A DNA stretch of 64,000 bases, taken from the IMG/VR virus record IMGVR_UViG_3300026549_000070; one strand, given 5' to 3'. This document shows positions 859 to 63,909 of the stretch, in pieces. The position numbers and the translations under genes were made by a program. The notes below the pieces were generated by a model. It worked only from the letters and a program-made list of their open reading frames with translations, had not been told where the DNA came from and made no database searches. This stretch comes from a virus (lineage: Duplodnaviria; Heunggongvirae; Uroviricota; Caudoviricetes). Each line of letters opens with the position of its first letter. Position 1 is the first letter of the stretch.

Positions 859-3800
859 TTGATGAATACAGAAGAATTTTACAATGGCTCACCTTATGAA
901 GTGGGCACTATGGATAACCTTGCAGAAACAAAGGTAAGCTATAATAACCTTGTAAAAGTTGTCCACGATGCTGCAGGCAGAAAAGGTTTAACTCTTTCTG
1001 AGTTTCTTAATTTGCAAAAATCTTCAGAAGAGTCTTCTGAGCTTGTTACATACCTTGATGAAAAAGGGTACTCTGTTCGCTCAATGGGCGAGGACGCAAA
1101 AATCTTTAATAATCAGATAAACACTCAAGCCGCTTTACAAACAATTCAAAACTTCTATGATATGTATATCTCTCCAACACAAGGAGACGCTCAATATCGT
1201 TTAGGAGAAGTTACAGGTCGCGCACTCCCAGGAACTGTAAATAATCAAACTGACGATCAAGGTCGTTTATTTACAAGATCTTTATATAACACAGTACTTA
1301 AATATAAAATTTGGAAAGTTGACCGTCTTGTAGATACTGAAGAATATTATTCTGTTCTTTGGTTCCCACCTTTTAAGCCAAACAGCGTTAAAGCTACTTC
1401 TTGGAAAGGCGCATATGTTTCTGACAACAGTGAAACAATTTCTCTTTCAATGGGAGAATATCTTTCACAAGCAAAAGCAAAGCGACAAGAAGAACTTGAT
1501 GAACTTAATGCAAAGCTGATTGAAGCTGGTGAAGAAGTTACACAAACAGAAGCAGATGATACACGCCTCGTTAAAAATCCATCAGCAACAAATGATAGCG
1601 CAAAATATTATGATACATTTGACTTAAACAAGTTTCTTGCAGCTCGTTCTTCATTTACATACCGTGCGCCTGGCTTCAAAGCAATCAATGATAACATTAA
1701 TATGATTCAGTGGCTTTTTGAAGGCTGCACAGGAATTGTATCAACATATCTTACAGAATGGGATATTTCATTATATCTTCAAGAAGGCCTTATATCTGAT
1801 TTTAATGGCACAATGCCAAATTACATTTTATTGACTCATCGTATGGATAAAGACAATCCTTCAGGATATACTGATGAACGGGCAGCTTCTTACGGTGTAG
1901 TAAACTGTGCTGTTTCAAAACTTAACTCAGATTATCATAAAACTTGGTATATCAATGCTTATCCATATTCGTCTTGGCATACTGCGTATCCTGACCCTTG
2001 GAAGATGGCAGGCTGGCTTGATAAGATTGAACAGAATGGCCAAATCGTTTATGTGCCAAACTGGTTTAAGTTTGGTCGTGAAGGCGTAAGCAACTACCTT
2101 GCTGGTAAAGATCTCGGTTATAAACCACGCCGTGACTGTATTAGTTCACGCTTGCTTTATCAAGATTTTGAAAATGCTGCTCTTTCAGGTTACACTGATT
2201 GGTCTTTTGATAAAAAGATTTGGAAAGCTCTTTACACTGGCGATGATGACGGCTTTACAGATATTGACTTAGTTTATTTATCAACATCTTGTGGTATGTT
2301 CAAAAAAGCTGACTTAATTGACCAAGTTGAAATGATTCTTTATGGCGTTTCTGCTGACGGTGTTCCTTATGATGGTTCAGAAGTCATAGGCGGTGATAAC
2401 GGCTCTGGTAACGGCAATATTACAAATGATGAAGAATATTCTTATTCTTCTGCTGAAGGTTCTGGCGGAAATAAGTACTGTCCAGGAAGTGTTTTCAAAG
2501 GTGCATTAACATTCTTAAATATGTTCAACACAAAAGATAGTAAGAAGAATGCTTCAATGTCACAAGCAGAAAGCCGTTTGCAAAGTGATAGCGGCAACAC
2601 TTATGGAGTAATGCAAGATTCACTTGGTATTACAAAACAGGCATCTACAGGTCAGCCAGCCACTTTAACAGAAGATGGTTACATTCTTGGAACTAAAAAA
2701 GCATTTACTGAAAACTCTATTGGCGTAGGTGTTCCTCAGTACAACCCAACATTATATGGTGGACCTCACGGATACTACCGTTCACCTGAGTCATATCAAT
2801 CTTACTATGAAGAAAACTCTGTTTACTTAAGAAATGTACCTCGTATTGATAAATGTCCTAATAGCTTCAGTCACGACTCTTGGGCAGGAATTACTTGGCC
2901 ATCACTTCCAAACTGGCAAGATAACTACTACTATAAAGGAAATGAAAAATGGACTTCAAACGTTGGCGCAGTTGCAAATGGTGAAAAGCAGTCATTTGAA
3001 CAATCTTGGTCTGCTGGTTTTGCTCGATTAAAGCAAGGTGTTCACTCTTACTCAATGCAAACTGCATACATCAGACGCCGTCACGATACTATCATTGAAG
3101 GTCACTTACATAGAAAACATCGTTGGTGGGCTGGCTGGAGAGGCTGGTACTCTTGGCGTTATTTTGGCTACGACGTTGGTTGGGACCAGCGTGCAAGTAA
3201 CGGTGAGTTGCTTAATCGCTATGGCAACTATTGGTGGGAGTGGCGTAAATCAACATTGTACAGCAATCGTTGGTGGTGGAATTCACTTTGGAATAATTGG
3301 GCATATTATGATGCTTGGCTAAACTATTACAACTTTTATTTCTCTTGGCAATATAGCTGGGGCTGGAAATGCGTATTGCATCGTTATGTACCTTGCACTT
3401 GGGCTTGGCATTATGAATGGTGCTATGCTGACTTCAAAAGATATGTTATTCATAATGGCTTCCACGATTATAAGTGGAAGATTGCTATGGTTCAGCACTA
3501 TAATGCAACTCTTGACCCACGGTCAAATGATAAGTTCCGTAACAGATGGGCTGCAACATTCTCAAAGATGTTTGGCTATTCAACACCTTATGAGAGAGCG
3601 TATCTTTCAGCATCAACAGAAGATTATGAATTATTTATTGACGACTCAGGTAAGCAGCCAGGAACACTGTTTGAAAAATACGATGACAAATATAAACAAG
3701 TAATTTCTTCTTATATGACAGTTAAGGAACATAATGTAATGGACTATTTAGTTGACTGGGGACGAGGCGTCGGTGCCCATAATAAACTTATGTTCTTGAC

Positions 3801-41298: not shown

Positions 41299-41344
41299 GC
41301 GGACAAATTGAACTTTGTCCGCTTTTCTTTTATATTATTATTGT
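41299..41344 (+). promoter_or_regulatory. class I conserved promoter whose -35 hexamer is embedded in a 9-bp inverted repeat (GCGGACAAA-ttgaac-TTTGTCCGC)
   Basis: gcggacaaattgaactttgtccgcttttcttttatattattattgt. Confidence 0.5.
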
Positions 41345-41928: not shown

Positions 41929-42350
41929 TGAGAGACACAGTTATAAAGCCAGGTGATACTTATAAAGTATTCCTTAGGAATGATATAATTTTTCCACACG
42001 CAGAAGTTCTTTCCATTGATGACAACTGGATTGAGTTTGCAATTATGCAGAGAGATGGCTCTTTCATATTTGAAACATATCCAAAGGATATGATCAAAAA
42101 GATGCTGTATCCTGAGGACCTTGACAAAAAAGTTTGGGTACTTATGAATGACGAAGAAGAAGCCAAGTTTACAGAAAGAGACTTGTCGGAGGATGAAATC
42201 AACTTCTCTCATATCAAGAACAGTACGATTATTCTTGATTCTCGAGATGATGCAATCGAGTACCTTAAGGATTTGAAAGACAAAGAGGACAATCCTCAAA
42301 AGGCGTATAAAATACAGTTAAAAGTAGGTTTTGGATATGAAGCTGTGTAA
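41928..42350 (+). CDS. hypothetical protein (140 aa)
   Basis: ATGA overlap. Confidence 0.45.
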   Translation: MRDTVIKPGDTYKVFLRNDIIFPHAEVLSIDDNWIEFAIMQRDGSFIFETYPKDMIKKMLYPEDLDKKVWVLMNDEEEAKFTERDLSEDEINFSHIKNSTIILDSRDDAIEYLKDLKDKEDNPQKAYKIQLKVGFGYEAV

Positions 42351-42518: not shown

Positions 42519-42881
42519 ATGAAGGCATACAAACCTAATGAATGCGACTTCCTTATTCTCAATCTTTTGAATGAGTATGATAAGGAATCATTAATGAAGT
42601 CTCTTTTGCAGGATGCGAAAGAAAGACAGGAAACTTTTGGTGATGAGTTTGAAAACTGTGTTCAGTTTGCTCAAACTTTTTCAAATGCGGTTTTCACACA
42701 GACAGCTCGCTGCCTTGTAAATGAAAAACTTATAAAAGAGAAGGTTAACGAAGTTGGAGAATTTCCACAGTTTGTCAATGACTATGAATTGACAGCTGCA
42801 GGTATTGAACTTTGGGAAAATCTTAAACAGAAGTTTAAGGACGATGTTCAAAAGCCTGGGTGGACAAAATTCTATCGGTAA
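42519..42881 (+). CDS. hypothetical protein (120 aa)
   Basis: RBS atggaggttaggtaatg. Confidence 0.45.
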   Translation: MKAYKPNECDFLILNLLNEYDKESLMKSLLQDAKERQETFGDEFENCVQFAQTFSNAVFTQTARCLVNEKLIKEKVNEVGEFPQFVNDYELTAAGIELWENLKQKFKDDVQKPGWTKFYR

Positions 42882-42919
42882 TTCTTCAACAGCTGTTAAT
42901 ATAAAATTACAGTTTAATC

Positions 42920-43298
42920 GGGCGTGAGTAATGGAATCGATTGGCTGAATAGTTCTTTAACATCAGGTAAAGGTGCCGACCTTAATACGGAAAAGAATAA
43001 CTGCAACTAAACGTTCAGTTGTTGCTCGTGGTTCACGCGCAGCTTTCGCTCGCGCTGCCTAAGGCAACACCTAGTTGGACCCTTTGAGGACCAACTGCGA
43101 CTTTCACGACTCAGATAGTGGAATGTTCGTATCGCCCATCTGATAAGTTGAACAAGAGTTGGGTTGCTTGCTCAGTTCAATCGAAAACTGAAAGTAAATA
43201 TGGGTTATGACCGTCCCTACCGTCAATTCGGTTTTAAGCCTGTAAAAAGTGTTATTGGGCAGCAGAGCAAGATTTGGGTTCGACACCCAACACGTCCA
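42920..43298 (+). ncRNA. ssrA: candidate tmRNA (ssrA-like), ~379 nt
   Basis: The 5' end GGGCGUG-AGUAAU-GGAAUCGAUUGG parallels the tmRNA 5' consensus GGGGCUG-AUUCU-GGAUUCGACGGG. AAGGUGC follows, then AAUAACU-GCA (compare the E. coli AAUAGUC-GCA resume context). A 19-codon frame follows (GCA...GCU GCC UAA). The 3' end is a T-arm UUGGG-UUCGACA-CCCAA plus CACGUCC-A that pairs with the 5' end, including a G3:U70 wobble and A73 (Ala identity). Confidence 0.55.
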
Positions 43299-43523
43299 GA
43301 TCCGCTATAAGATGAGATTCGGTTTTGCGGAGCCGACGATTTGAAGTGGACTTATTGTGAGGTTTTATCCGGAGAAACAATTCTCAGAATAAGCTGCGTT
43401 CAAATAACTTTTAATATCGTTTACTAGTATAAAAATGGCTGGCGATATTAAAAGAAACCAATGAATTATAAAAGCCATTTGCTCAATGGATGAAATAGTA
43501 GTTGAAATTGAGCACAAACTTAC

Positions 43524-43638
43524 GGGGCTTGCGGGCACTAGGATTGAGTTGGTCGCATTAAAAAATGGTACTGCGCGGGTCCAACGGAATAGGGACGCTC
43601 GGAAACGAGAGAACTGGGTTCGACTCCCAGGTGCGGAA
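43524..43638 (+). ncRNA. tRNA-like or tmRNA-like structured RNA unit with a canonical T-arm (unresolved fold)
   Basis: Starts GGGGCUUGCGGGCACUAGGAUUGAGUUGG and ends with the T-arm CUGGG-UUCGACU-CCCAG. Confidence 0.3.
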
Positions 43639-44008
43639 GTTGGATATTCTTTGTTCACCGTCTAAAAAGAACAAAGTGGTGGAAGGTATGCTTGAGAAAT
43701 CGGGCATCCCCAAATGAACAAGAGCTTGTAGACAATCAACCTAGTATGCCTTATTGCTGCAGGTTTGATAGGAGAGCTCCACGCGGAAAGTTTCCTTCTA
43801 AGCAGTTGAAGGTTTAGGTTCCGCACATGTAGGACATTCAGAGTTTCTTCGGAGAGTCTGAAAAAACCTTCCACGTCATAAAATGTGGGTAACAACACTA
43901 AGACGCTAAATAAGAGATTGTTACAAAGCTACGGTTTGTCCGCTTCTAGGATTGAGAAACGCGGGTGGAATTGCGGGGAAGCATATCCCGTTGAATGAGG
44001 CAACTCAT

Positions 44009-44082
44009 ACTTCAATGGTGTAACTTGGTTAGCATACTGCCGGTGAATGGCGGCGATGTGGGTTCAAATCCTACTTGAAGTT
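44009..44082 (+). ncRNA. tRNA-like element (acceptor ACUUCAA/UUGAAGU, T-arm GUGGG-UUCAAAU-CCUAC); D and anticodon arms imperfect
   Basis: Acceptor complementarity plus a T-arm. Confidence 0.3.
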
Positions 44083-44243
44083 TTTAAGTTTTCAATTTCT
44101 TTCAAAAATTGATGGTGGAGGACTCACTTCGGTGCGTCCCTAGTTGAAAGCAGATTAGGTCGCAAGCTTTGGTAAGACCCTACAGTTTTCAACTTTTTGC
44201 GGAAATGGAATACTTGCGAATAAGCAATTTCCGCACATGTTAC

Positions 44244-44334
44244 GCGGGTCTGATAAAGGTAGGGGTTAACCGTGACCACTGCGGAGTGTACATATGCTTT
44301 GGTGCTATGGCAGGTTCGAATCCTGCGACCCGCA
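44244..44334 (+). ncRNA. 91-nt tRNA-like element (perfect 7-bp acceptor GCGGGUC/GACCCGC, T-arm GCAGG-UUCGAAU-CCUGC); interior does not fold as a canonical tRNA
   Basis: Perfect acceptor and T-arm; a long interior. Confidence 0.3.
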
Positions 44335-44351
44335 TTATAAATACGAGAATT

Positions 44352-44384
44352 AGGGAAATCTTTCATTGATTTCCCTATTTTTTT
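44352..44384 (+). terminator. rho-independent terminator closing the structured-RNA cluster
   Basis: agggaaatc-tttcattg-atttccct followed by attttttttt. Confidence 0.55.
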
Positions 44385-44424
44385 TTGAACTTTTAATGTA
44401 AGTCTTTTATATTATTTTTGTAAA
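44385..44424 (+). promoter_or_regulatory. class I conserved promoter
   Basis: ttgaacttttaatgtaagtcttttatattatttttg, then aaaggagcaaattatg. Confidence 0.55.
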
Positions 44425-44448
44425 TTAAAAAAATAAAAGGAGCAAATT

Positions 44449-44658
44449 ATGGCAAAACATCCTACAAAAAGAATTGATACTATGAAATGGTTTTGGTATG
44501 TATTGGCGGCTTGCCTTGCAGTTGCACTTGGCTGCTTTGGACACCCTATCTTAGGAGTAATTATTGCTCGTTTGATTTGGTGTATTCCGAATAAAAGAAA
44601 CAGCAAAACTATTGATGCAGAAGAAGTTGAGTACGAGGTACACGATGCAGATGATTAA
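44449..44658 (+). CDS. small membrane early protein (69 aa)
   Basis: Class I cassette; one TM helix. Confidence 0.5.
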   Translation: MAKHPTKRIDTMKWFWYVLAACLAVALGCFGHPILGVIIARLIWCIPNKRNSKTIDAEEVEYEVHDADD

Positions 44659-51814: not shown

Positions 51815-52052
51815 AAGAAAGTTCGTTGGCCGCGAACAAGTATTTCTAGCCAAAGTGGAATCCAAAGTAAGACTTTGGGCATTCCGATTGGGTTTGTTAT
51901 TAGGGGGTATGCAGACCACTGAAAGCAAGCTAAGGGTCGGGTGTTGCTATGAAAGGCTGATGGTTGCGACTGCAATGATCTCACATCAGTAATCAGATGC
52001 TGCGCGATTTAAGATGGTATCGTAAGATGCTGTCTAGGGAGGTTCGACTCCT
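51815..52052 (+). ncRNA. non-coding structured region with group I intron-like R/S elements, ending in a tRNA-type T-arm plus acceptor 3' strand
   Basis: tgcAGACCActGAAAGcaAG (compare GACUAnAnGAAAG) and AAGATggtatcG (compare AAGAUAUAGUC); T-arm GGAGG-UUCGACU-CCUUC-CCACUUC-G at 52028..52052. Confidence 0.25.
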
Positions 52053-52148
52053 TCCCACTTCGCTACTTAGGCAACGGTTGTTCCTAATAAGGAATAATGA
52101 AAGTTTTTCAAATTACAACCCGCCTGTTACTTTTTAAGAGGTTCTTGA

Positions 52149-54053
52149 ATGAACTGGAAACTTATTCAGCTTTTTAACAAAGCTCCTTCTTGTACTTGTG
52201 ACCTTGCAACATTCAAAGCAGTAAACGAAAAGGCTATGAAGGCAGGTTATCTTGTCCACCCAGACTGCTGCGGAAGCAAAGAAATCAAAAAGTTTCTCGA
52301 GAACGAAACTTACAATCCAAACTCAACTTTCTACAAAACATTTGAAGATGTTGTATCAAAGGACCGCCTCGAGCTCGCTTTTGATCAGTGGATGCACTAT
52401 GCTTCAACTTATGGTACAGGCCATACTCAGGAAGGCAACGGTTATGTTCCAAACGATGAACCGCCTGTAATCGAGTTCAAAAAGTACAAAGTTATTCTTC
52501 CTGCAACAGAAGAGGAAATCTTCGAAGAATGCTATGGAATGTTGAAGTCAGGTATCGCAATCAACGAAAAGACTCTTCAGCTTTTGATGGACTACATCAA
52601 AGATTATGACTTCTTAAACAAAGTTGATGTTGATGAAATTGCAAACAAAGAAGCGCAGGCTATCTTCGCTGTTCAGATGGGCGCATACCCTAAGCAGCCA
52701 ATTTCAGTATTGCGTGTTATTATGTATCTTTTGACACAAGACACTGCAATGCTTGTTAAGTCAAGAGAGTCAATCGCTCGTATCAAAGGTTTGGTTGCTG
52801 CATTGCCTGCAAAGCAGAAGAAAGATTTGAACAAGATCTTGAGCGAAAGAGACGTTGCTTTGTCAACTATCTTCTATCGTTACAAGCCGCTTATTCTTGC
52901 AATGAAATGCGCTGAAACACATACAACAATCAACCACATCCGTAAGTTGGCTGTTAAGAACCATAAGCCGATGAAAGTTGGTTTCTGGGAAAGATGTTTC
53001 AATCCTGAAAATCAGCAGGATGCTTACCTTAAAGAAGCAGCAGAAAAAGTTGATTCTTTGACTGCCTTCAAGAAAGGCCAGCTTATGCAGGGCATTATGG
53101 AACGCGTGAACGGTCAGGATGTCAAAGGCCGTATGTTCGTTATCAGAAATGGAAAGACTTTCGTTCGTGAAGGTTATAAAGCTTCTTGTGATGAAAAGTA
53201 CCTTGCTGAGTTGTATGCAATCCTTAAGGACTCATACATCAACAACTTGGCAAAGAAAGCTATCACAAAAGTAACAACAAAAGATGCCGAAGGAAACGAT
53301 GTTGTTCTTGAAAGACCAACAAGAATCAAACTTCCTAAAGGAATTGAGTTGACAATTCCAACTTCTGAAAAGAACTTTGTTGGTAACTATCCTATGGGTA
53401 CTGCGATTCCTCTTGCAGAAAAAGACAATGTAATTGGCATTTATTGGCGTAATGAATGGGGTGTATATGATTATGACCTCCACTTTGTCAGCAAGTCAGG
53501 TCAGCATTATGGTTGGAATGGTGACTATCACGGTGGTAAGTATGGCAAGATCATTTACTCTGGTGATATGACAAATGCAGATCCTGAAGCAGCAGAATGC
53601 ATTTACATTGAAAATGGAGCTCCTGATGGCGTGATTTCAGTCAACAAGTTCTCAGGAGATAAGAACTCAAAGTTCAAACTCTTTGTTGCTGTTGACCCAA
53701 GTAAAGCAAATATGGACAGAAGAGACCGTTGGAACAGCAGCGCCAAAAATGCAATGGTTGATCCAAACAAGATTGTGTTTGAAGCAGAGCTCGAACACGA
53801 TACTTATGGTCAGAAGGTTGTTGCAAAAATTGAAGATGGCAAAATCTTTATGTCAGCTTTGGAAGCTGGTGCTACCCGCGTACCTTCTGTTTCAATGATG
53901 AAAATTATTGAAGCACAGGGCAAGGTAAAAGCAAACAGCTATATCAAGTTGAACGACTTGCTTGTTGCTGCAGGTTTTGAGTTTGTCGAAGATGAACCTG
54001 ATATTGATTTTACTCAGATGAGCAAAAACGATCTTATTAAACTTGTTGAGTAA
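52149..54053 (+). CDS. hypothetical 634-aa protein (function unknown)
   Basis: RBS ttaagaggttcttgaatg; long uninterrupted ORF. Confidence 0.5.
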   Translation: MNWKLIQLFNKAPSCTCDLATFKAVNEKAMKAGYLVHPDCCGSKEIKKFLENETYNPNSTFYKTFEDVVSKDRLELAFDQWMHYASTYGTGHTQEGNGYVPNDEPPVIEFKKYKVILPATEEEIFEECYGMLKSGIAINEKTLQLLMDYIKDYDFLNKVDVDEIANKEAQAIFAVQMGAYPKQPISVLRVIMYLLTQDTAMLVKSRESIARIKGLVAALPAKQKKDLNKILSERDVALSTIFYRYKPLILAMKCAETHTTINHIRKLAVKNHKPMKVGFWERCFNPENQQDAYLKEAAEKVDSLTAFKKGQLMQGIMERVNGQDVKGRMFVIRNGKTFVREGYKASCDEKYLAELYAILKDSYINNLAKKAITKVTTKDAEGNDVVLERPTRIKLPKGIELTIPTSEKNFVGNYPMGTAIPLAEKDNVIGIYWRNEWGVYDYDLHFVSKSGQHYGWNGDYHGGKYGKIIYSGDMTNADPEAAECIYIENGAPDGVISVNKFSGDKNSKFKLFVAVDPSKANMDRRDRWNSSAKNAMVDPNKIVFEAELEHDTYGQKVVAKIEDGKIFMSALEAGATRVPSVSMMKIIEAQGKVKANSYIKLNDLLVAAGFEFVEDEPDIDFTQMSKNDLIKLVE

Positions 54054-54297: not shown

Positions 54298-55533
54298 ATG
54301 AAACATTTTGAAAAACTCGAAAACTTCGTAAAGTCAAATCCAAACTGGGAAGACATTCTCAGACCAAATATGAAATCCATTTATCCTGTTGAAGGTCGTA
54401 ACTGGGTTGTACTTATGTACAATCTTATGGATATGCCTAAAGACAAGGAAATATTTGATATAATGTGTCAGTGCCGTGGTACTGTAATTGACAAAACCAC
54501 AGGTGAAATCATCTGTGCACCGTTCACAAAGTTTTGGAATTACAAAGATGAAGGCGTTGCTGCTGATATTGATTGGGACTCTGCTTGGGTTTCACATAAG
54601 CGTGACGGCTGGATTTTCAAAGCATTCAAATGGCACGGCAATGTTTATTGGATGTCAAATGGTCGTGTGATTACTGAGAATGAGAAGGGCGCTCCTGTTG
54701 ACTATGTCCCAGGCTTGCCAAGATTGAACAATATGTCTGATGTTCTTTTACGGGCATTGACAAACGACGGTTCATCTGCTTTCTTCTCAGATGGCTTCTT
54801 GTTCTCAGATTGTGAATGGGCAAAAAGAATGCCTGAAGGTTCAACAGCAATGTTTGAATTGGAGTCACCTTGGAACAGAATTCATACTGACTTGGTAAAA
54901 GATGCAAAACTTTGGCTTATCGGTTTCCGTATGCCAAGCGGCGATGAAATAACTTTCACTGAAGCAAAAGAAAGATTCAACTTTCCTTTTGAAACGCCAA
55001 AGATGTATGATTTCAAGTCCGCAAAAGAAATGCTTGATGTACTTGCAGGTTGGAATGTAAAAGACAACGGTGAAGGTGTTGTTGTATGTGACAAATACTT
55101 CAACCGTGTAAAAGTCAAAATTGATGATTACATTCGTGTAAAGTTTGAATCAAGAGGCGAAGACTTTGGTGACAACCGCTTGTTCAAATATTATTGTATG
55201 AATGAAGTTGATGACCTTTGTGCTGCTGATCCAAAAGTAAAAGCTCGTGTTGAGGAAATCTCTCACAATGTTCAGTTGTACCGTAAATGGCTTGAAGAAA
55301 AAGTTGAATATGTCAACACTGTAATTGCAACAAAATATGCAGACAAGAAAGAGTTCTTCACTTCTGTTGATGATGACTTCCCTGAGGATGCTGCTTTGTT
55401 CAAACAGCTTTACGGCAAGAATGCAGAAAATCTTTTTAAGAACTTTATCGAAAAAGGTAAAGTGTCAAAAACTTTATACCGTGATACTCTCCATCTTATG
55501 GGTATGGAGATGACTGATGGAACAGAGGAGTAA
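54298..55533 (+). CDS. RNA ligase 1 (T4 RnlA-like)
   Basis: MCQCRGTVIDKTTGEI parallels LECRGIMFEMDGEK. Motif I SHKRDGWIF parallels TKEDGSLVS. EGVVVCDKYFNRVKVKIDDY parallels [20 protein letters not shown]. Confidence 0.7.
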   Translation: MKHFEKLENFVKSNPNWEDILRPNMKSIYPVEGRNWVVLMYNLMDMPKDKEIFDIMCQCRGTVIDKTTGEIICAPFTKFWNYKDEGVAADIDWDSAWVSHKRDGWIFKAFKWHGNVYWMSNGRVITENEKGAPVDYVPGLPRLNNMSDVLLRALTNDGSSAFFSDGFLFSDCEWAKRMPEGSTAMFELESPWNRIHTDLVKDAKLWLIGFRMPSGDEITFTEAKERFNFPFETPKMYDFKSAKEMLDVLAGWNVKDNGEGVVVCDKYFNRVKVKIDDYIRVKFESRGEDFGDNRLFKYYCMNEVDDLCAADPKVKARVEEISHNVQLYRKWLEEKVEYVNTVIATKYADKKEFFTSVDDDFPEDAALFKQLYGKNAENLFKNFIEKGKVSKTLYRDTLHLMGMEMTDGTEE

Positions 55534-58879: not shown

Positions 58880-59008
58880 TATTTGACAACTTCGATGTAG
58901 ATGGCTACACAGAGAACGGGAAATATGAGGAGTTATACTCAACCGCTGGAAGCACCGGATGGTAAAGGCCTGTATATGACGACGCAGGATGAAGTCGATA
59001 CCGTCAAA

Positions 59009-59121
59009 GGAGAACATTAGTTCGAAAGCTCAAAAAGCAGTGCACGGCAAAGTAGAGCAGGGTCTAGAACGCTGGGTGTAGTATGCTCAGAAACTGAGGT
59101 TCGAATCCTCTATGTTCTAAA
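59009..59121 (+). ncRNA. tRNA-like element, 113 nt (acceptor AGAACAU/AUGUUCU plus T-arm); too long for a simple tRNA, so possibly intron-containing
   Basis: Perfect acceptor complementarity flanks the T-arm UGAGG-UUCGAAU-CCUCU. Confidence 0.25.
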
Positions 59122-59179
59122 GGTTGGCAACCAAACCTCTAAGGTTCCATACAAGCAGGAGCAATCTGTAAGGCTTGTT

Positions 59180-59266
59180 AAGTGCGATGAAGGAAAAAGG
59201 TAAGGCTTATACACCCTCTGGGTTGACGCACACTGAGAGCGGGTTCAATTCCCGACTGCACTTATA
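59180..59266 (+). ncRNA. tRNA-like element (T-arm GCGGG-UUCAAUU-CCCGA; acceptor AGUGCGA/CUGCACU with one mismatch)
   Basis: T-arm plus acceptor complementarity; the D arm is unresolved. Confidence 0.25.
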
Positions 59267-59271
59267 CTGAT

Positions 59272-59346
59272 GGTGGAAATTGTTGGATCCGTGAAGTTCG
59301 CAAGGCTGGAGTAACGGCAAGGTTCAAGTCCTTGTTTCACTTATAT
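59272..59346 (+). ncRNA. tRNA-like element (T-arm CAAGG-UUCAAGU-CCUUG; acceptor GGUGGAA/UUUCACU with G-U pairs)
   Basis: T-arm plus acceptor complementarity; interior unresolved. Confidence 0.25.
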
Positions 59347-59351
59347 CTTAC

Positions 59352-59440
59352 TCGGGAGTAAAGAGTAATTGGTACCTCCCCAGACTTTGATTCTGGTGAC
59401 GCATATCAGCGTCGTGCAGGTTCGAATCCCGCCTTCCGAA
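59352..59440 (+). tRNA. type II-like tRNA (long variable-arm hairpin GACGC-auauca-GCGUC) with an anticodon loop reading UUG; two extra nt before the D stem; identity uncertain
   Basis: Acceptor UCGGGAG/CUUCCGA; anticodon stem CCAGA/UCUGG with loop CUUUGAU; T-arm GCAGG-UUCGAAU-CCCGC. Confidence 0.3.
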
Positions 59441-59604
59441 CTAGGAGTTCATTAAACGTCACTATGGGTGAAAGTCCCATCAACCTCGCAGCAGTGATGC
59501 TACTCGTATGGCTTGCAAAAATCGAATGCAGGTAGCGGGGCTGTAGTTTGAGAAAGTAAAACCGGCAAGAACTCTTTCTCCTTACTAATTATTAAGAGGA
59601 CAAT

Positions 59605-61138: not shown

Positions 61139-61144
61139 AGAACG

Positions 61145-61224
61145 TTAAACGGAATAAAATAACAGCTTGGTTGCTGCCACCTCGTGGTATCGTTCGGTGG
61201 AAGGTTCGAATCCTTGAAAAAGCA
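61145..61224 (+). ncRNA. orphan T-arm-containing tRNA-like fragment
   Basis: GAAGG-UUCGAAU-CCUUG, but no complementary 5' acceptor was found upstream. Confidence 0.2.
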
Positions 61225-61273
61225 TACGGGTAATTCTTTTCCTTGCAAAAGGTTTCTTATACCTAGAATTTTT

Positions 61274-61312
61274 GGGGTATTGGTGGAGTTGGCTACCACG
61301 CTAGCCTGTGAT
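61274..61312 (+). tRNA. 5' half of a tRNA-His-like gene (acceptor GGGGUAU, D-arm GUGG-AGUUGGCUA-CCAC, anticodon stem CUAGC and loop CUGUGAU, so anticodon GUG), interrupted after the anticodon loop
   Basis: Canonical 5' half by hand; the 3' anticodon strand GCUAG does not follow here but is found at 62008, downstream of the inserted ORF. Confidence 0.4.
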
Positions 61313-62532: not shown

Positions 62533-62877
62533 CTACTTTCAACTTCATTCTAGACAGAAGTTGACAAAAGTACAAACCTTTGTGAGACGAGCTCGCATTT
62601 GTTGGCTTAATCGTAGTAAGCCTAGGCACCTGTAGCTCCTTAACCCCTGAGAGTTTCTCGCGCGAAACGAAACTCTTGGATAAGTGCGGACATTAAGATC
62701 AAGTATCGGGCGTTCCGTTTGAAAGGTGGTTTGTTTATTGGTCTATTAGTGAAGCAGCTAACACGCCTGCCTGTCACGCAGGAGATGACCGGGGCAGCAC
62801 CGGTATAGACCGTACATATCGCAAATAGCGCGATAAGTTCTTTGACATATATGATTTCTTTGTTTTGTTTTTTACAT
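62533..62877 (+). ncRNA. ~345-nt non-coding, GC-rich structured spacer between tRNA-Tyr and the next tRNA-like gene (function unknown)
   Basis: No plausible ORF on either strand; many local hairpins, e.g. gagagtttctcgcgcgaaacgaaactcttgg. Confidence 0.25.
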
Positions 62878-63099: not shown

Positions 63100-63909
63100 A
63101 TGTATATGAAAACTTATCAATGTGAGTTCTGTAATAGAACTATTGACTATACTAATATAGGTCGTCACCGAAAAACTTGTATTAAAAATCCCAATTCTGA
63201 GAAGTGTAAAGAACAAAACAAAGAAAGGACTTGTGAAAGGTGCAAATGCATTTATACATTAAGTGAAGCAGGAAGCACGAAAAGATTCTGTTCTAGGTCT
63301 TGTGCTAATGCTAGAGATCATTCTAGTGAGACTAAACTTAAAATGAGTGAATCTTTAAAAGTTTTTTACGAAGAACATCCTAAATGTAATGCAAAATCAA
63401 AATTACCCGAAAGTTTCTGCATTGTTTGTAATAAACAAATATCTAGAAAAAATAAGTCTGGATATTGTAAGGGATGCTTTCACTTAAGGCCAGTTTCATT
63501 GGAAACAAGAGAAAAGCTTTCTAGAGCAGGAAAGAAAAGCGCTCAAGTTCAAAAGAACAATAGACGTTCAAAAATAGAAGCGTTGTTCTTTGAAAAGATA
63601 AAAAAGATTTTTGATGATGCTGAGTCAAATAAAATCTTAGTTGACGGCTGGGACACAGATGTATTTCTCCCGACGCAACAAATTGCTATATTTTGGAATG
63701 GCCCGTGCCATTACTATCCAATATATGGTCAAAAAAGTTTAAATCAAACTCAAAATAGAGACAGAATTAAAAAGTCTTTGTTTGAGAAAGCAGGATATAA
63801 AGTTTATATTGTAAAAGATGTAGATGAGGCGTATCCGAAAGAAATTCGGAAAAACAGAGATAAAAGAACAGATGTCCAATTAGACTTGTTTTTAGAATTT
63901 CTAGGGTGA
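63100..63909 (+). CDS. homing endonuclease-like protein (multiple Cys zinc-finger repeats plus a DUF559/Vsr-like endonuclease domain)
   Basis: CEFCNR...CIKN, CERCKC, FCIVCNK...CKGC. The C-terminal region aligns with the DUF559 domain of the 61329 protein. Confidence 0.55.
   Translation: MYMKTYQCEFCNRTIDYTNIGRHRKTCIKNPNSEKCKEQNKERTCERCKCIYTLSEAGSTKRFCSRSCANARDHSSETKLKMSESLKVFYEEHPKCNAKSKLPESFCIVCNKQISRKNKSGYCKGCFHLRPVSLETREKLSRAGKKSAQVQKNNRRSKIEALFFEKIKKIFDDAESNKILVDGWDTDVFLPTQQIAIFWNGPCHYYPIYGQKSLNQTQNRDRIKKSLFEKAGYKVYIVKDVDEAYPKEIRKNRDKRTDVQLDLFLEFLG

Follow-up and report, generated by a model that had tools for sequence, protein, structure and literature searches.

A transfer-messenger RNA (tmRNA) gene in the genome of a tailed phage is followed by a non-coding RNA island with three transfer RNA (tRNA)-shaped modules, which lack a usable anticodon loop and are embedded in a conserved, structured RNA. 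The phage is IMG/VR record IMGVR_UViG_3300026549_000070 (Duplodnaviria; Heunggongvirae; Uroviricota; Caudoviricetes), and the window analyzed here is a stretch of 64,000 nucleotides of its DNA; the parts of the island described below are located on the + strand. The tmRNA (42920–43301), found by a permissive scan with Rfam RF00023, forms the 5′ edge of the RNA island, and an intrinsic terminator with a 10-bp stem and a U9 run (44351–44387, from a terminator scan) closes it. The region 43302–44390 is a single non-coding RNA island between tmRNA and terminator, and 42882–44611 is the longest stretch of the window free of plausible open reading frames (ORFs). A preliminary description of this DNA, made from its letters, had reported three T-arm-bearing RNAs behind the tmRNA that do not fold as simple tRNAs. 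What was noticed there exists and exceeds chance expectation by a wide statistical margin, with two of the three unit boundaries misplaced; the interpretation offered was half right. All three T-arms are found with the letters described, at 43614–43630, 44058–44074, and 44310–44326, and their spacing, counted from the T-arm of the tmRNA onward, is 340, 444, and 252 nt.

The first module, tL1 (43570–43637), is 68 nt long and adopts a cloverleaf as its minimum-free-energy structure (ensemble frequency 0.52). It has an acceptor stem, CUGCGC/GUGCGG, of 6 bp plus an A·A mismatch, a D-arm, GUCC-AACGGAAUAG-GGAC, with a 4-bp stem and a GG-containing loop, a variable loop of 4 nt, and a T-arm, CUGGG-UUCGACU-CCCAG; its “anticodon” arm, CUCG-GAAA-CGAG, carries a GNRA tetraloop and no anticodon. 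The Rfam tRNA model aligns to tL1 from end to end at 21.8 bits (threshold, 29), with 4 nt opposite the 9 model positions that form the anticodon loop and its closing pair. This unit had been thought to begin at 43524 with a tmRNA-like 5′ motif (GGGGCUUGCGGG...). The motif is indeed present and is kept in all relatives, but it belongs to a separate leader hairpin, and 43570–43637 makes a clean cloverleaf alone. The second module, tL2 (44009–44082), described earlier as not folding like a simple tRNA, is in fact a 74-nt cloverleaf called as tRNA-Ser(tga) by ARAGORN and matched by the Rfam tRNA model at 40.9 bits, in which the anticodon loop alone is abnormal. Its acceptor stem, ACUUCAA/UUGAAGU (44009–44015/44075–44081), is perfectly paired over 7 bp, as had been claimed, and its core is canonical (U8, A14, G18G19, G53:C61, and the T-loop UUCAAAU), with an anticodon loop, GGUGAAU, that has G instead of U at position 33. 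Its T-arm reads GUGGG-UUCAAAU-CCUAC. The third module, tL3 (44244–44334; fold z = −2.5), is class-II-like and 91 nt long with a long variable arm (CAUA...UAUG plus inner pairs), and it is the only one to which the reported unit lengths of 91–115 nt apply. It has a perfect 7-bp acceptor stem, GCGGGUC/GACCCGC (44244–44250/44327–44333, also as reported), a discriminator A, a short 3-bp D-arm (GGU...ACC), an “anticodon” stem of 3–4 bp with a loop of 4–6 nt, and a T-arm, GCAGG-UUCGAAU-CCUGC. No tRNA match to tL3 was found in Rfam, the only weak match being to tRNA-Sec, whose threshold of 47 bits is well above the 20.2 bits reached. The ARAGORN and Rfam check suggested in the preliminary description for ordinary tRNAs gives a match above the tRNA threshold for tL2, one below it for tL1, and none for tL3. 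The proposal of intron-containing tRNAs, including those split by group I introns, was rejected because the modules are complete, contiguous cloverleaves and no group I or group II intron match was found in the island at E ≤ 10.

These features were compared in an alignment (A3) of nine sequences, namely the window and eight metagenomic relatives, which fall into a close clade (L002, L009, L015, L016, L018, and L019; 85–91% identical) and a distant clade (L007 and L020; ~70%). The copies came from IMG/VR (L001/L002, ~91% identical), from contigs encoding a 120-aa protein that lies upstream of the tmRNA, and from one metagenome scan with an invariant 19-mer. The island is rare in current data, with nine copies: BLASTN in “distant” mode against 50,697 phage records gave no match, and exact-pattern and protein-anchored scans of IMG/VR gave only one true relative. 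L003 and L004 were rejected as unrelated tRNA arrays sharing T-arm words alone, and L010, L017, and L022 as matches by chance, L017 consisting of coding DNA from a bacterium and L022 of a Pseudomonas metagenome-assembled genome; contigs with P0002 and P0004 stop before reaching the RNA. Profiles of the leader, core, and 3′ domain described below had no nhmmer match in L003, L004, L008, or L021. The island gains and loses size among related phages, since the remoter phage L008 has the tmRNA with nothing after it, and L021, an unrelated 66-kb phage contig, has ~350 nt of hairpin modules without T-arms behind its tmRNA.

Within this alignment, the “anticodon” arm of tL1 keeps a GAAA or GGAA tetraloop throughout the close clade, and its stem switches between G:C and A:U, with four sequences against four including one row of the distant clade. 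Compensatory changes within the close clade are also found in the T-stem (C:G to U:A) and in the acceptor stem of tL1; the modules of the distant clade at this place (slot 1) are analogous, not homologous, and their columns are no true covariation. All four arms of tL2 are 100% paired, each with one or two compensatory pairs, and its loop has 6 nt (GGUGAA in L009), 7 nt, or 8 nt (GGGUGAUU in L002 and L018), with GGGUGGC as a further version and always with G33. ARAGORN names the tL2 slot Ser(tga), “4-base gtga,” “2-base tg,” or, in L007 and L020, His(gtg), despite near-identical acceptor stems, and neither anticodon nor identity is constant among orthologues. The two versions of tL3 differ by three compensatory T-stem pairs (GCAGG/CCUGC and CCCCG/CGGGG). 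None of the three modules has an anticodon loop of 7 nt with U at position 33 and a purine at position 37. What they retain is the part responsible for the L-shape of a tRNA and for its 12-bp stack of acceptor and T-arm: a 6–7-bp acceptor stem, a T-stem of 5 bp, and a T-loop of the GTΨC type, joined in tL1 and tL2 by a D-arm whose loop contains GG. Judging from these sequences, tL1, tL2, and tL3 are best regarded as non-decoding, tRNA-shaped modules, in which selection keeps acceptor stems, T-arms, and elbow and not the anticodon end. The option of tRNA-like RNAs in the preliminary description fits them well in this respect, with a GNRA tetraloop in tL1, a 6-, 7-, or 8-nt loop without U33 in tL2, and a 4–6-nt loop in tL3.

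At slot 1, three tRNA-shaped sequences unrelated to one another are found: that of the window, that of L007, called Lys(ttt) by ARAGORN, and that of L020, which is almost without an anticodon arm; the flanks of these differing modules are 91–99% identical. Between L007 and L020, slot 1 is only 33% identical while the core is 91% and tL2 99% identical, and the leader is 74% identical. Between the window and the distant clade, the corresponding identities are 29% for slot 1, 69% for the core, 69% for tL2, and 87% for the leader. Versions of tL3 are 70–72% identical (72% between L016 and L015) inside flanks that are 97–100% identical, and tL3 is missing from L007 and L020. The modules behave as cassettes that are swapped between phages otherwise nearly identical. 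In L016, an ORF for a GIY-YIG/NUMOD3 (Seg-like) homing endonuclease (L016 1548–2237) sits between tmRNA and island, a neighbor that hints at how segments may be swapped.

The inter-module sequence, not the T-arm units, is the best-conserved part of the island. When a curated structure with 31 helices (188 pairs) was scored on the alignment, 96.9% of its cells proved to be paired across the nine sequences. In line with the covariation check against related phages that had been suggested, 41 pairs are changed on both sides, compared with 17.0 ± 2.9 in shuffled alignments (0 of 500 shuffles reach 41); many of these compensatory counts represent a single evolutionary event because only two clades were sampled. 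Sliding the partners by 1–3 columns leaves 4–10 both-side-changed pairs. Many helices end in a GNRA or UUCG tetraloop, and the additional hairpins seen in relatives are placed precisely at helix tips or in linkers. The earlier statement that no ORF explains the region holds as well: no ORF is conserved, variable columns are spread over the three codon phases as 41/40/39 without 3-base periodicity, and the minus-strand open frames vary in length between close relatives (88–164 codons), so that a coding origin on either strand was rejected. The island is a conserved structured RNA supported by covariation, and neither coding sequence nor mere spacer; this agrees with the suggestion of another non-coding RNA class, as the inter-module sequence shows the highest conservation, covaries, and matches no Rfam family.

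The structure begins behind the tmRNA with a spacer (43302–43520) that contains a long, imperfect hairpin (43339–43361/43383–43405), a 12-bp hairpin (43408–43419/43443–43454), and a GCUCAAU...AUUGAGC hairpin (~43487–43514); in a consensus fold of seven relatives, 16 of its 41 pairs stay paired through both-side changes, and the endonuclease ORF of L016 is inserted at its 5′ edge. The conserved leader (43521–43569) starts with UUACGGGGCUU and comprises a hairpin at 43531–43556 (GCGG/UCGC plus CACU/AGUUG) with a 7-nt loop, AGGAUUG, and an A-rich linker. It is near-invariant in all nine sequences, and its first helix is 98.6% paired, with GCGG changed to GUGA in L007 and pairing with UCGC kept; L002 and L018 have a GAAA-capped hairpin inserted in the linker. 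Between tL1 and tL2 lies a conserved multi-helix core of 371 nt (43638–44008), which is 90–93% identical between the window and the close clade (99% between some members of the latter) and contains invariant runs of up to 34 nt; no paralogue of it was found elsewhere in the window. The core consists of H2 (43649–43656/43669–43676), H3 (43678–43683/43707–43711) with a GAAA-capped tip, H4/H5 (43724–43779), H6 (43783–43788/43819–43824) enclosing H7 (43794–43798/43808–43812), UUCG-capped H8/H9 (43831–43870), H10 (43889–43895/43918–43924), a second hairpin with the AGGAUUG loop of the leader (43940–43964), H12 (43973–43978/43986–43991), and GCAA-capped H13 (43995–44008), which abuts tL2. Both-side changes are seen in three pairs of H7, four of H10, and three of H12.

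Behind tL2, a clade-specific insert (44083–44141), absent in L007 and L020, contains a hairpin (44092–44098/44106–44112), UGGUGGA (44113–44119), and a UUCG-capped GGAC...GUCC hairpin (44120–44139). In relatives, GGAC/GUCC is changed to GGAU/AUCC, and five of them add a 27-nt structured insertion. The insert is a second copy of a “hairpin + UGGUGGA + hairpin + UCCC” module whose first copy is H2/H3. It is followed by the conserved 3′ domain of 102 nt (44142–44243), formed by H14 (44142–44151/44185–44194; one compensatory pair), H16 (44198–44206/44227–44235; four), and a 7-bp loop-loop (pseudoknot) helix between UCGCAAG (44160–44166) and CUUGCGA (44213–44219) with two compensatory pairs. This helix is 100% paired in all nine sequences, its version in L007 and L020 being CUGCAAG/CUUGCAG. 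Several candidate long-range pairings were rejected: the inverted repeats 43628–43649/44218–44239, 43590–43609/44123–44142, and 43628–43638/43819–43829 are broken by substitutions in relatives that favor local hairpins, an RNAalifold helix 43522–43527/43872–43877 is broken in the distant clade, and another RNAalifold helix to 44330 is spurious.

A few repeats within the island were also noticed. The repeated module, written in full as “A-rich-loop hairpin, (G/A)UGGUGGA, hairpin, UCCC(C),” covers 43649–43711 and 44092–44141 in the window, and the same UGGUGGA module is found four times in tandem behind the L021 tmRNA (965–1300, minus strand); UGGUGGA is invariant in all five aligned copies of the window and L021. 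Four of the ten TGGTGGA words in the window are within RNA islands. UGGUGGA pairs in cis with UCC-CC and, as a speculative lead, is exactly complementary to UCCACCA-3′, with which mature tmRNA and tRNA-Ala end. A 12-codon frame including its stop (ATG GTG GAG GAC ... TGA, 44112–44147) overlaps the second module; it is absent in L007 and L020, and the 27-nt insertion of five relatives is in frame with it and keeps the stop, which could be a coincidence (1 in 3), as the insertion also makes a hairpin. An exact 12-mer, TTCCGCACATGT, occurs in the 3′ strands of both H6 (43819–43830) and H16 (44229–44240), and the GCGG-type 5′ strands at 43531, 43973, and 44199 share the same CGG to UGA change in the distant clade. 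Such a repeated 12-mer and parallel changes may leave room for alternative or long-range pairings.

The tmRNA in front of the island scores 40.2 bits with RF00023 (E = 4e-14), under the gathering score of 47. Its acceptor stem, GGGCGUG/CACGUCC, includes a G3:U70 pair, and its tag reading frame encodes ATKRSVVARGSRAAFARAA*. ARAGORN missed the tmRNA of the window and called its orthologues with tag ATKRSVVARGSRAAFARAA in L002, L015, L016, and L018. This tag is unusual; other tags are ATKRSVVAHSNAVFARAA in L008 and ATKRSVFARGSRAVFARAAA in L021. As to transcription, a promoter-like motif, TTGAAC-N17-TATATT (TTGAACTT-N-TCTTTTATATT), has 11 copies in the window, where 0.06 are expected, all on the + strand (15855, 24891, 30041, 41308, 44385, 47154, 50595, 54201, 58514, 60513, and 60983), and these are usually located right after a terminator and ahead of a gene or tRNA block. 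Near the island, one copy lies downstream (44385–44413) and the nearest upstream one is at 41308. Because the terminator at 44351 is the sole one between these two copies, the tmRNA and all the sequence down to this terminator are probably co-transcribed as one transcription unit. Another motif, TATAAAAT(T)ACAG, occurs twice (42306–42317 and 42900–42912; 0.05 expected), one copy stopping 8 nt short of the 5′ end of the tmRNA, and this copy may be a promoter or processing signal. At the other end, L015 and L016 have an extra ~1.07-kb insertion straight after the island terminator.

The island has not been cataloged as a family, and its known ingredients are tRNA-associated large structured phage RNA and tRNA mimicry. 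In three permissive Rfam scans of the island and of its compact L007 version (E ≤ 10), no family matched the leader, core, or 3′ domain beyond chance level, and the covariance models of GOLLD, with its conserved 3′ domain, and of ROOL, with its junctions and pseudoknots, gave no match in either. RNAs of the GOLLD/ROOL type are abundant, representative structures of both have been solved, and their function is unknown. GOLLD and ROOL lie in phage tRNA islands, and the linker of GOLLD sometimes carries covalent tRNAs (PMC12286853, PMC5737381). Like the present island, GOLLD is a large multi-helix phage RNA beside tRNA islands with tRNAs at times embedded between conserved domains (PMC12286853), and the island shares with both families the phage origin, the neighborhood of tRNA islands, and embedded tRNA shapes. 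It differs from GOLLD in that its modules are non-decoding and that the RNA follows a tmRNA; self-assembly into a homo-oligomeric cage belongs to the description of GOLLD/ROOL RNAs. ROOL, ~580 nt long, is phage- or prophage-encoded and often near tRNAs (PMC5737381, PMC12286853); without the modules and the clade-specific insert, the island comprises ~0.5–0.6 kb, near the size of ROOL, whereas it appears to be mainly a chain of local hairpins with one pseudoknot. In mycobacterial Y RNA, a tRNA-like module with a 7-bp acceptor is cleaved by RNase P and receives CCA, and the stable tRNA fold of such Y RNA (YrlA) has been proposed to protect from nucleases (PMC4201824). YrlA resembles the island by T-arm and D-arm mimicry in a non-decoding RNA, while the modules of the island are free-standing cloverleaves between RNAs and not a domain closed by a Ro-binding helix. 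No Rfam Y-RNA family matched the island, and no Ro60/Rsr (TROVE) protein was found with Pfam among the 30 ORFs of at least 150 aa in the window or the four ORFs flanking the island.

Further parallels are found with mascRNA at the 3′ ends of MALAT1 and MEN-beta and with mitochondrial “tRNA punctuation,” where a cloverleaf with a reduced arm is the RNase P/RNase Z signal that sets the ends of neighboring RNAs. According to folds and alignments, the modules have the intact acceptor/T-arm stack and the reduced anticodon arm of a mascRNA-type cloverleaf, most extremely in L020, where slot 1 is almost without such an arm; tL1 reaches only 13 bits with the mascRNA model through its T-arm, and those systems are eukaryotic or organellar, whereas cleavage in the island is a prediction. 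The tRNA region of phage T4 hosts a Seg-type homing endonuclease. It also encodes small stable RNAs C and D, of unknown role (PMC3014915). Likened to the island by description only, RNAs C and D are stable RNAs from a phage tRNA cluster with a Seg-type endonuclease nearby, as in L016, and are much smaller. The T-arm region of tL1 and the T-arm of the phage’s own tmRNA share 85% identity over 20 nt, and GGAUUGAGUUGG of the leader resembles the 5′ end of the tmRNA, GGAAUCGAUUGG. Nevertheless, a tmRNA-related RNA, as had been proposed, or a second or permuted tmRNA was rejected: no tmRNA match lies outside 42920–43301, GGGGCUU is not complementary to GUGCGGA after the T-arm and has no other 3′ partner there, no pseudoknot series is present, and no tag frame is conserved, a 9-codon ATG frame at 43688 being lost in L007 and L020. 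A by-eye resemblance to RNase P RNA (GGAAAGU and AAAUGAAC) was also discarded, being without any Rfam match. Bacteria and their phages are known to have tRNAs with unusual cloverleaves (PMC5389517), and tRNA-like structures in phages have been reported generally (PMC10690425). The present arrangement was not found described in the literature, the coverage of which was incomplete, so an earlier description is possible.

Our favored explanation, adopted tentatively and with real doubt, is that the island gives a composite structured RNA whose tRNA mimics are RNase P/RNase Z processing handles, not translation adaptors. RNase P, RNase Z, and CCA-adding enzyme recognize acceptor stem, T-arm, and elbow, and because precisely these are retained, punctuation of a precursor by the modules is the most economical mechanism. 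Host RNase P would cleave each module at its 5′ end, the 3′ ends would be generated by RNase Z or 3′ exonucleases, and CCA-adding enzyme would possibly act next. A long precursor would be punctuated in this way, leaving the conserved RNAs with defined termini that resist nucleases, the core and the 3′ domain being the functional product. Under such a mechanism the acceptor/T-arm/elbow half alone would be selected; therefore, the anticodon arm could become a tetraloop or nearly disappear, as in L020, and any cassette would be replaceable. By context and by analogy with GOLLD/ROOL, the function of the core is probably tied to translation or tRNA biology in infection. Several points weigh against this explanation. 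Both processing and co-transcription were deduced from sequence, H13 abuts tL2 without the spacer that an ideal RNase P leader would provide, and the acceptor stem of tL1 in the window has only 6 bp and a mismatch. Punctuation alone has no obvious need for three modules, leaves the constancy of GGUG in all versions of the tL2 loop unexplained, and is suited by cassette swapping no better than a decoy in an arms race would be. In addition, the covariation comes from nine sequences in two clades, with many counts reflecting one event, and analogous modules occupy slot 1 in the distant clade. We consider it possible, with less confidence, that the island represents an undescribed class of large modular phage RNA linked to tmRNA, a third “ornate” kind beside GOLLD and ROOL, with swappable anticodon-less modules as adaptors to host tRNA or translation machinery.

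Alternatively, the RNA from 43521 to ~44340 may stay intact as one covalent “ornate” RNA like GOLLD/ROOL, with the tRNA-like domains as functional arms that show elbows to ribosomes, EF-Tu, tRNA-modifying enzymes, or SmpB, or that aid multimer assembly. Covalent tRNAs in the GOLLD linker and the location of GOLLD and ROOL in phage tRNA islands (PMC12286853) are precedents for such an RNA. In the island itself, helices directly flank tL2, the AGGAUUG loop and the UGGUGGA module each occur twice, which suggests that docking sites are repeated, and GCGGG of the leader changes together with UCCGC of the 3′ strand (44230) in the distant clade, which could be a long-range contact possible only in an uncut molecule. 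However, the helices with support are mostly local, hairpins that have better local support compete with the candidate long-range pairs, and GOLLD and ROOL models are without a match, as stated above; moreover, the unrelated cassettes in slot 1 and the lack of tL3 in the distant clade speak against modules that are integral parts of one fold, and we regard this explanation as rather unlikely. A comparable, low degree of belief is given to the view that the tRNA mimics themselves are the product, serving as decoys, also an option in the preliminary description, or as sponges for host enzymes or for defense nucleases that recognize tRNA shape (anticodon nucleases or acceptor-end-modifying toxins), with an arms race behind their turnover. 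T4 Rnl1 repairs tRNAs cut by anticodon nucleases, and the presence of a T4 Rnl1-type RNA ligase gene (54298–55533) in this phage fits a decoy role, as do the unrelated tRNA-shaped replacements between phages otherwise 91–99% identical, the tL2 loop that is altered, not deleted, with GGUG always kept, and the many more reduced tRNA-like modules elsewhere in the window. Yet decoys alone leave unexplained why inter-module segments are better conserved than the modules, a tetraloop in place of an anticodon loop is a poor bait for an anticodon nuclease, and no defense or anti-defense protein was identified beside the island.

Two further explanations treat the modules as tRNA genes proper. They could be decaying pseudo-tRNAs of an old array, whose spacers are conserved merely through recent divergence; a phage with at least nine ordinary tRNA genes would be a suitable place for such remnants, and indels in anticodon loops resemble loss of function. 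We consider this improbable, since the stems of all three modules stay paired via compensatory changes, a sign that their shape is under purifying selection, every close relative has a clean, covarying 4-bp stem with a GNRA tetraloop as its tL1 anticodon arm, and the flanking RNA is kept down to ~70% overall identity with invariant runs of 20–34 nt and covariation of its own. Still less credible is that these are exotic functional tRNAs, tL2 acting in frameshifting or recoding with an expanded loop, or tL3 as a serine acceptor like tRNA-Sec or an allo-tRNA. Such ideas draw on the “4-base” anticodon called by ARAGORN in L002 and L018, on the long variable arm and weak tRNA-Sec match (20.2 bits) of tL3, and on the precedent of unusual cloverleaf tRNAs in bacteria and phages (PMC5389517). 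They conflict with a tL2 loop of 6, 7, or 8 nt among phages 85–91% identical, with the apparent anticodon change from UGA to GUG on an unchanged acceptor stem, with the lack of U33 throughout, with the lack of any loop able to decode in tL1, and with a tL3 score far under the tRNA-Sec threshold.

The link to tRNA is built into the molecule here, as stripped tRNA shapes at fixed slots of a conserved RNA behind a phage tmRNA. Built-in modules of this kind point to tRNA-processing or tRNA-binding machinery as a partner, which would be a clue to the function of GOLLD/ROOL-type RNAs, and they suggest that the tRNA shape can evolve as an interchangeable cassette independently of decoding. There is also a practical consequence: gene finders call the modules Ser, His, Lys, or “4-base anticodon” tRNAs, and such labels would falsely imply that phage genomes provide for frameshift suppression or codon supplementation.

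With 0.17 occurrences expected, the window contains 15 copies of the T-arm word GGTTCRANTCC, all on the + strand. Six further words (52041, 59098, 59242, 59321, 61203, and 63911, + strand) are not called as tRNA by ARAGORN or Rfam. A motif scan placed extra T-arm words in the islands 51815–52150, 58881–59351, 59442–59604, and 61140–61300, and several of these sites fold as reduced modules of acceptor stem and T-arm; one of them, 59272–59341, gives a sub-threshold match of 24 bits to the mascRNA model. The phage seems to have a repertoire of reduced tRNA mimics in other non-coding islands.

The window has ~37% GC, and almost every gene is on the + strand. Among its 30 ORFs of at least 150 aa, scanned against Pfam, helicases, DnaB, ThyX, dCMP deaminase, and the RNA ligase mentioned above were found. 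The closest IMG/VR relative of the phage is a 259-kb contig, and from this and the gene content the window looks like part of a jumbo phage. Directly upstream of the tmRNA, the 120-aa protein (42519–42881) is encoded in the window and likewise in all relatives for which the upstream flank was examined. It is 96–98% identical in the close clade, above the identity of the DNA, and 61% identical in L008. It has no match in Pfam, PHROG, or PDB, and its AlphaFold model, all-helical and of low confidence (predicted local distance difference test score, 51), is too weak a basis for judging the role of SmpB-like partner that was considered for it. ARAGORN and Rfam together give at least nine ordinary tRNAs at 58.8–63 kb, plus the one call at 44009–44082. 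In this cluster, a 90-nt “tRNA-Gln(ttg)” of ARAGORN (59352–59441) has a 16-nt insertion in the variable region and scores 28.3 bits in Rfam, just below the threshold, and a tRNA at 62740–62812 was found by Rfam and missed by ARAGORN. At the end of the cluster, an ORF at 63100–63909 has a weak NUMOD3 match, under the whole-protein threshold of Pfam.

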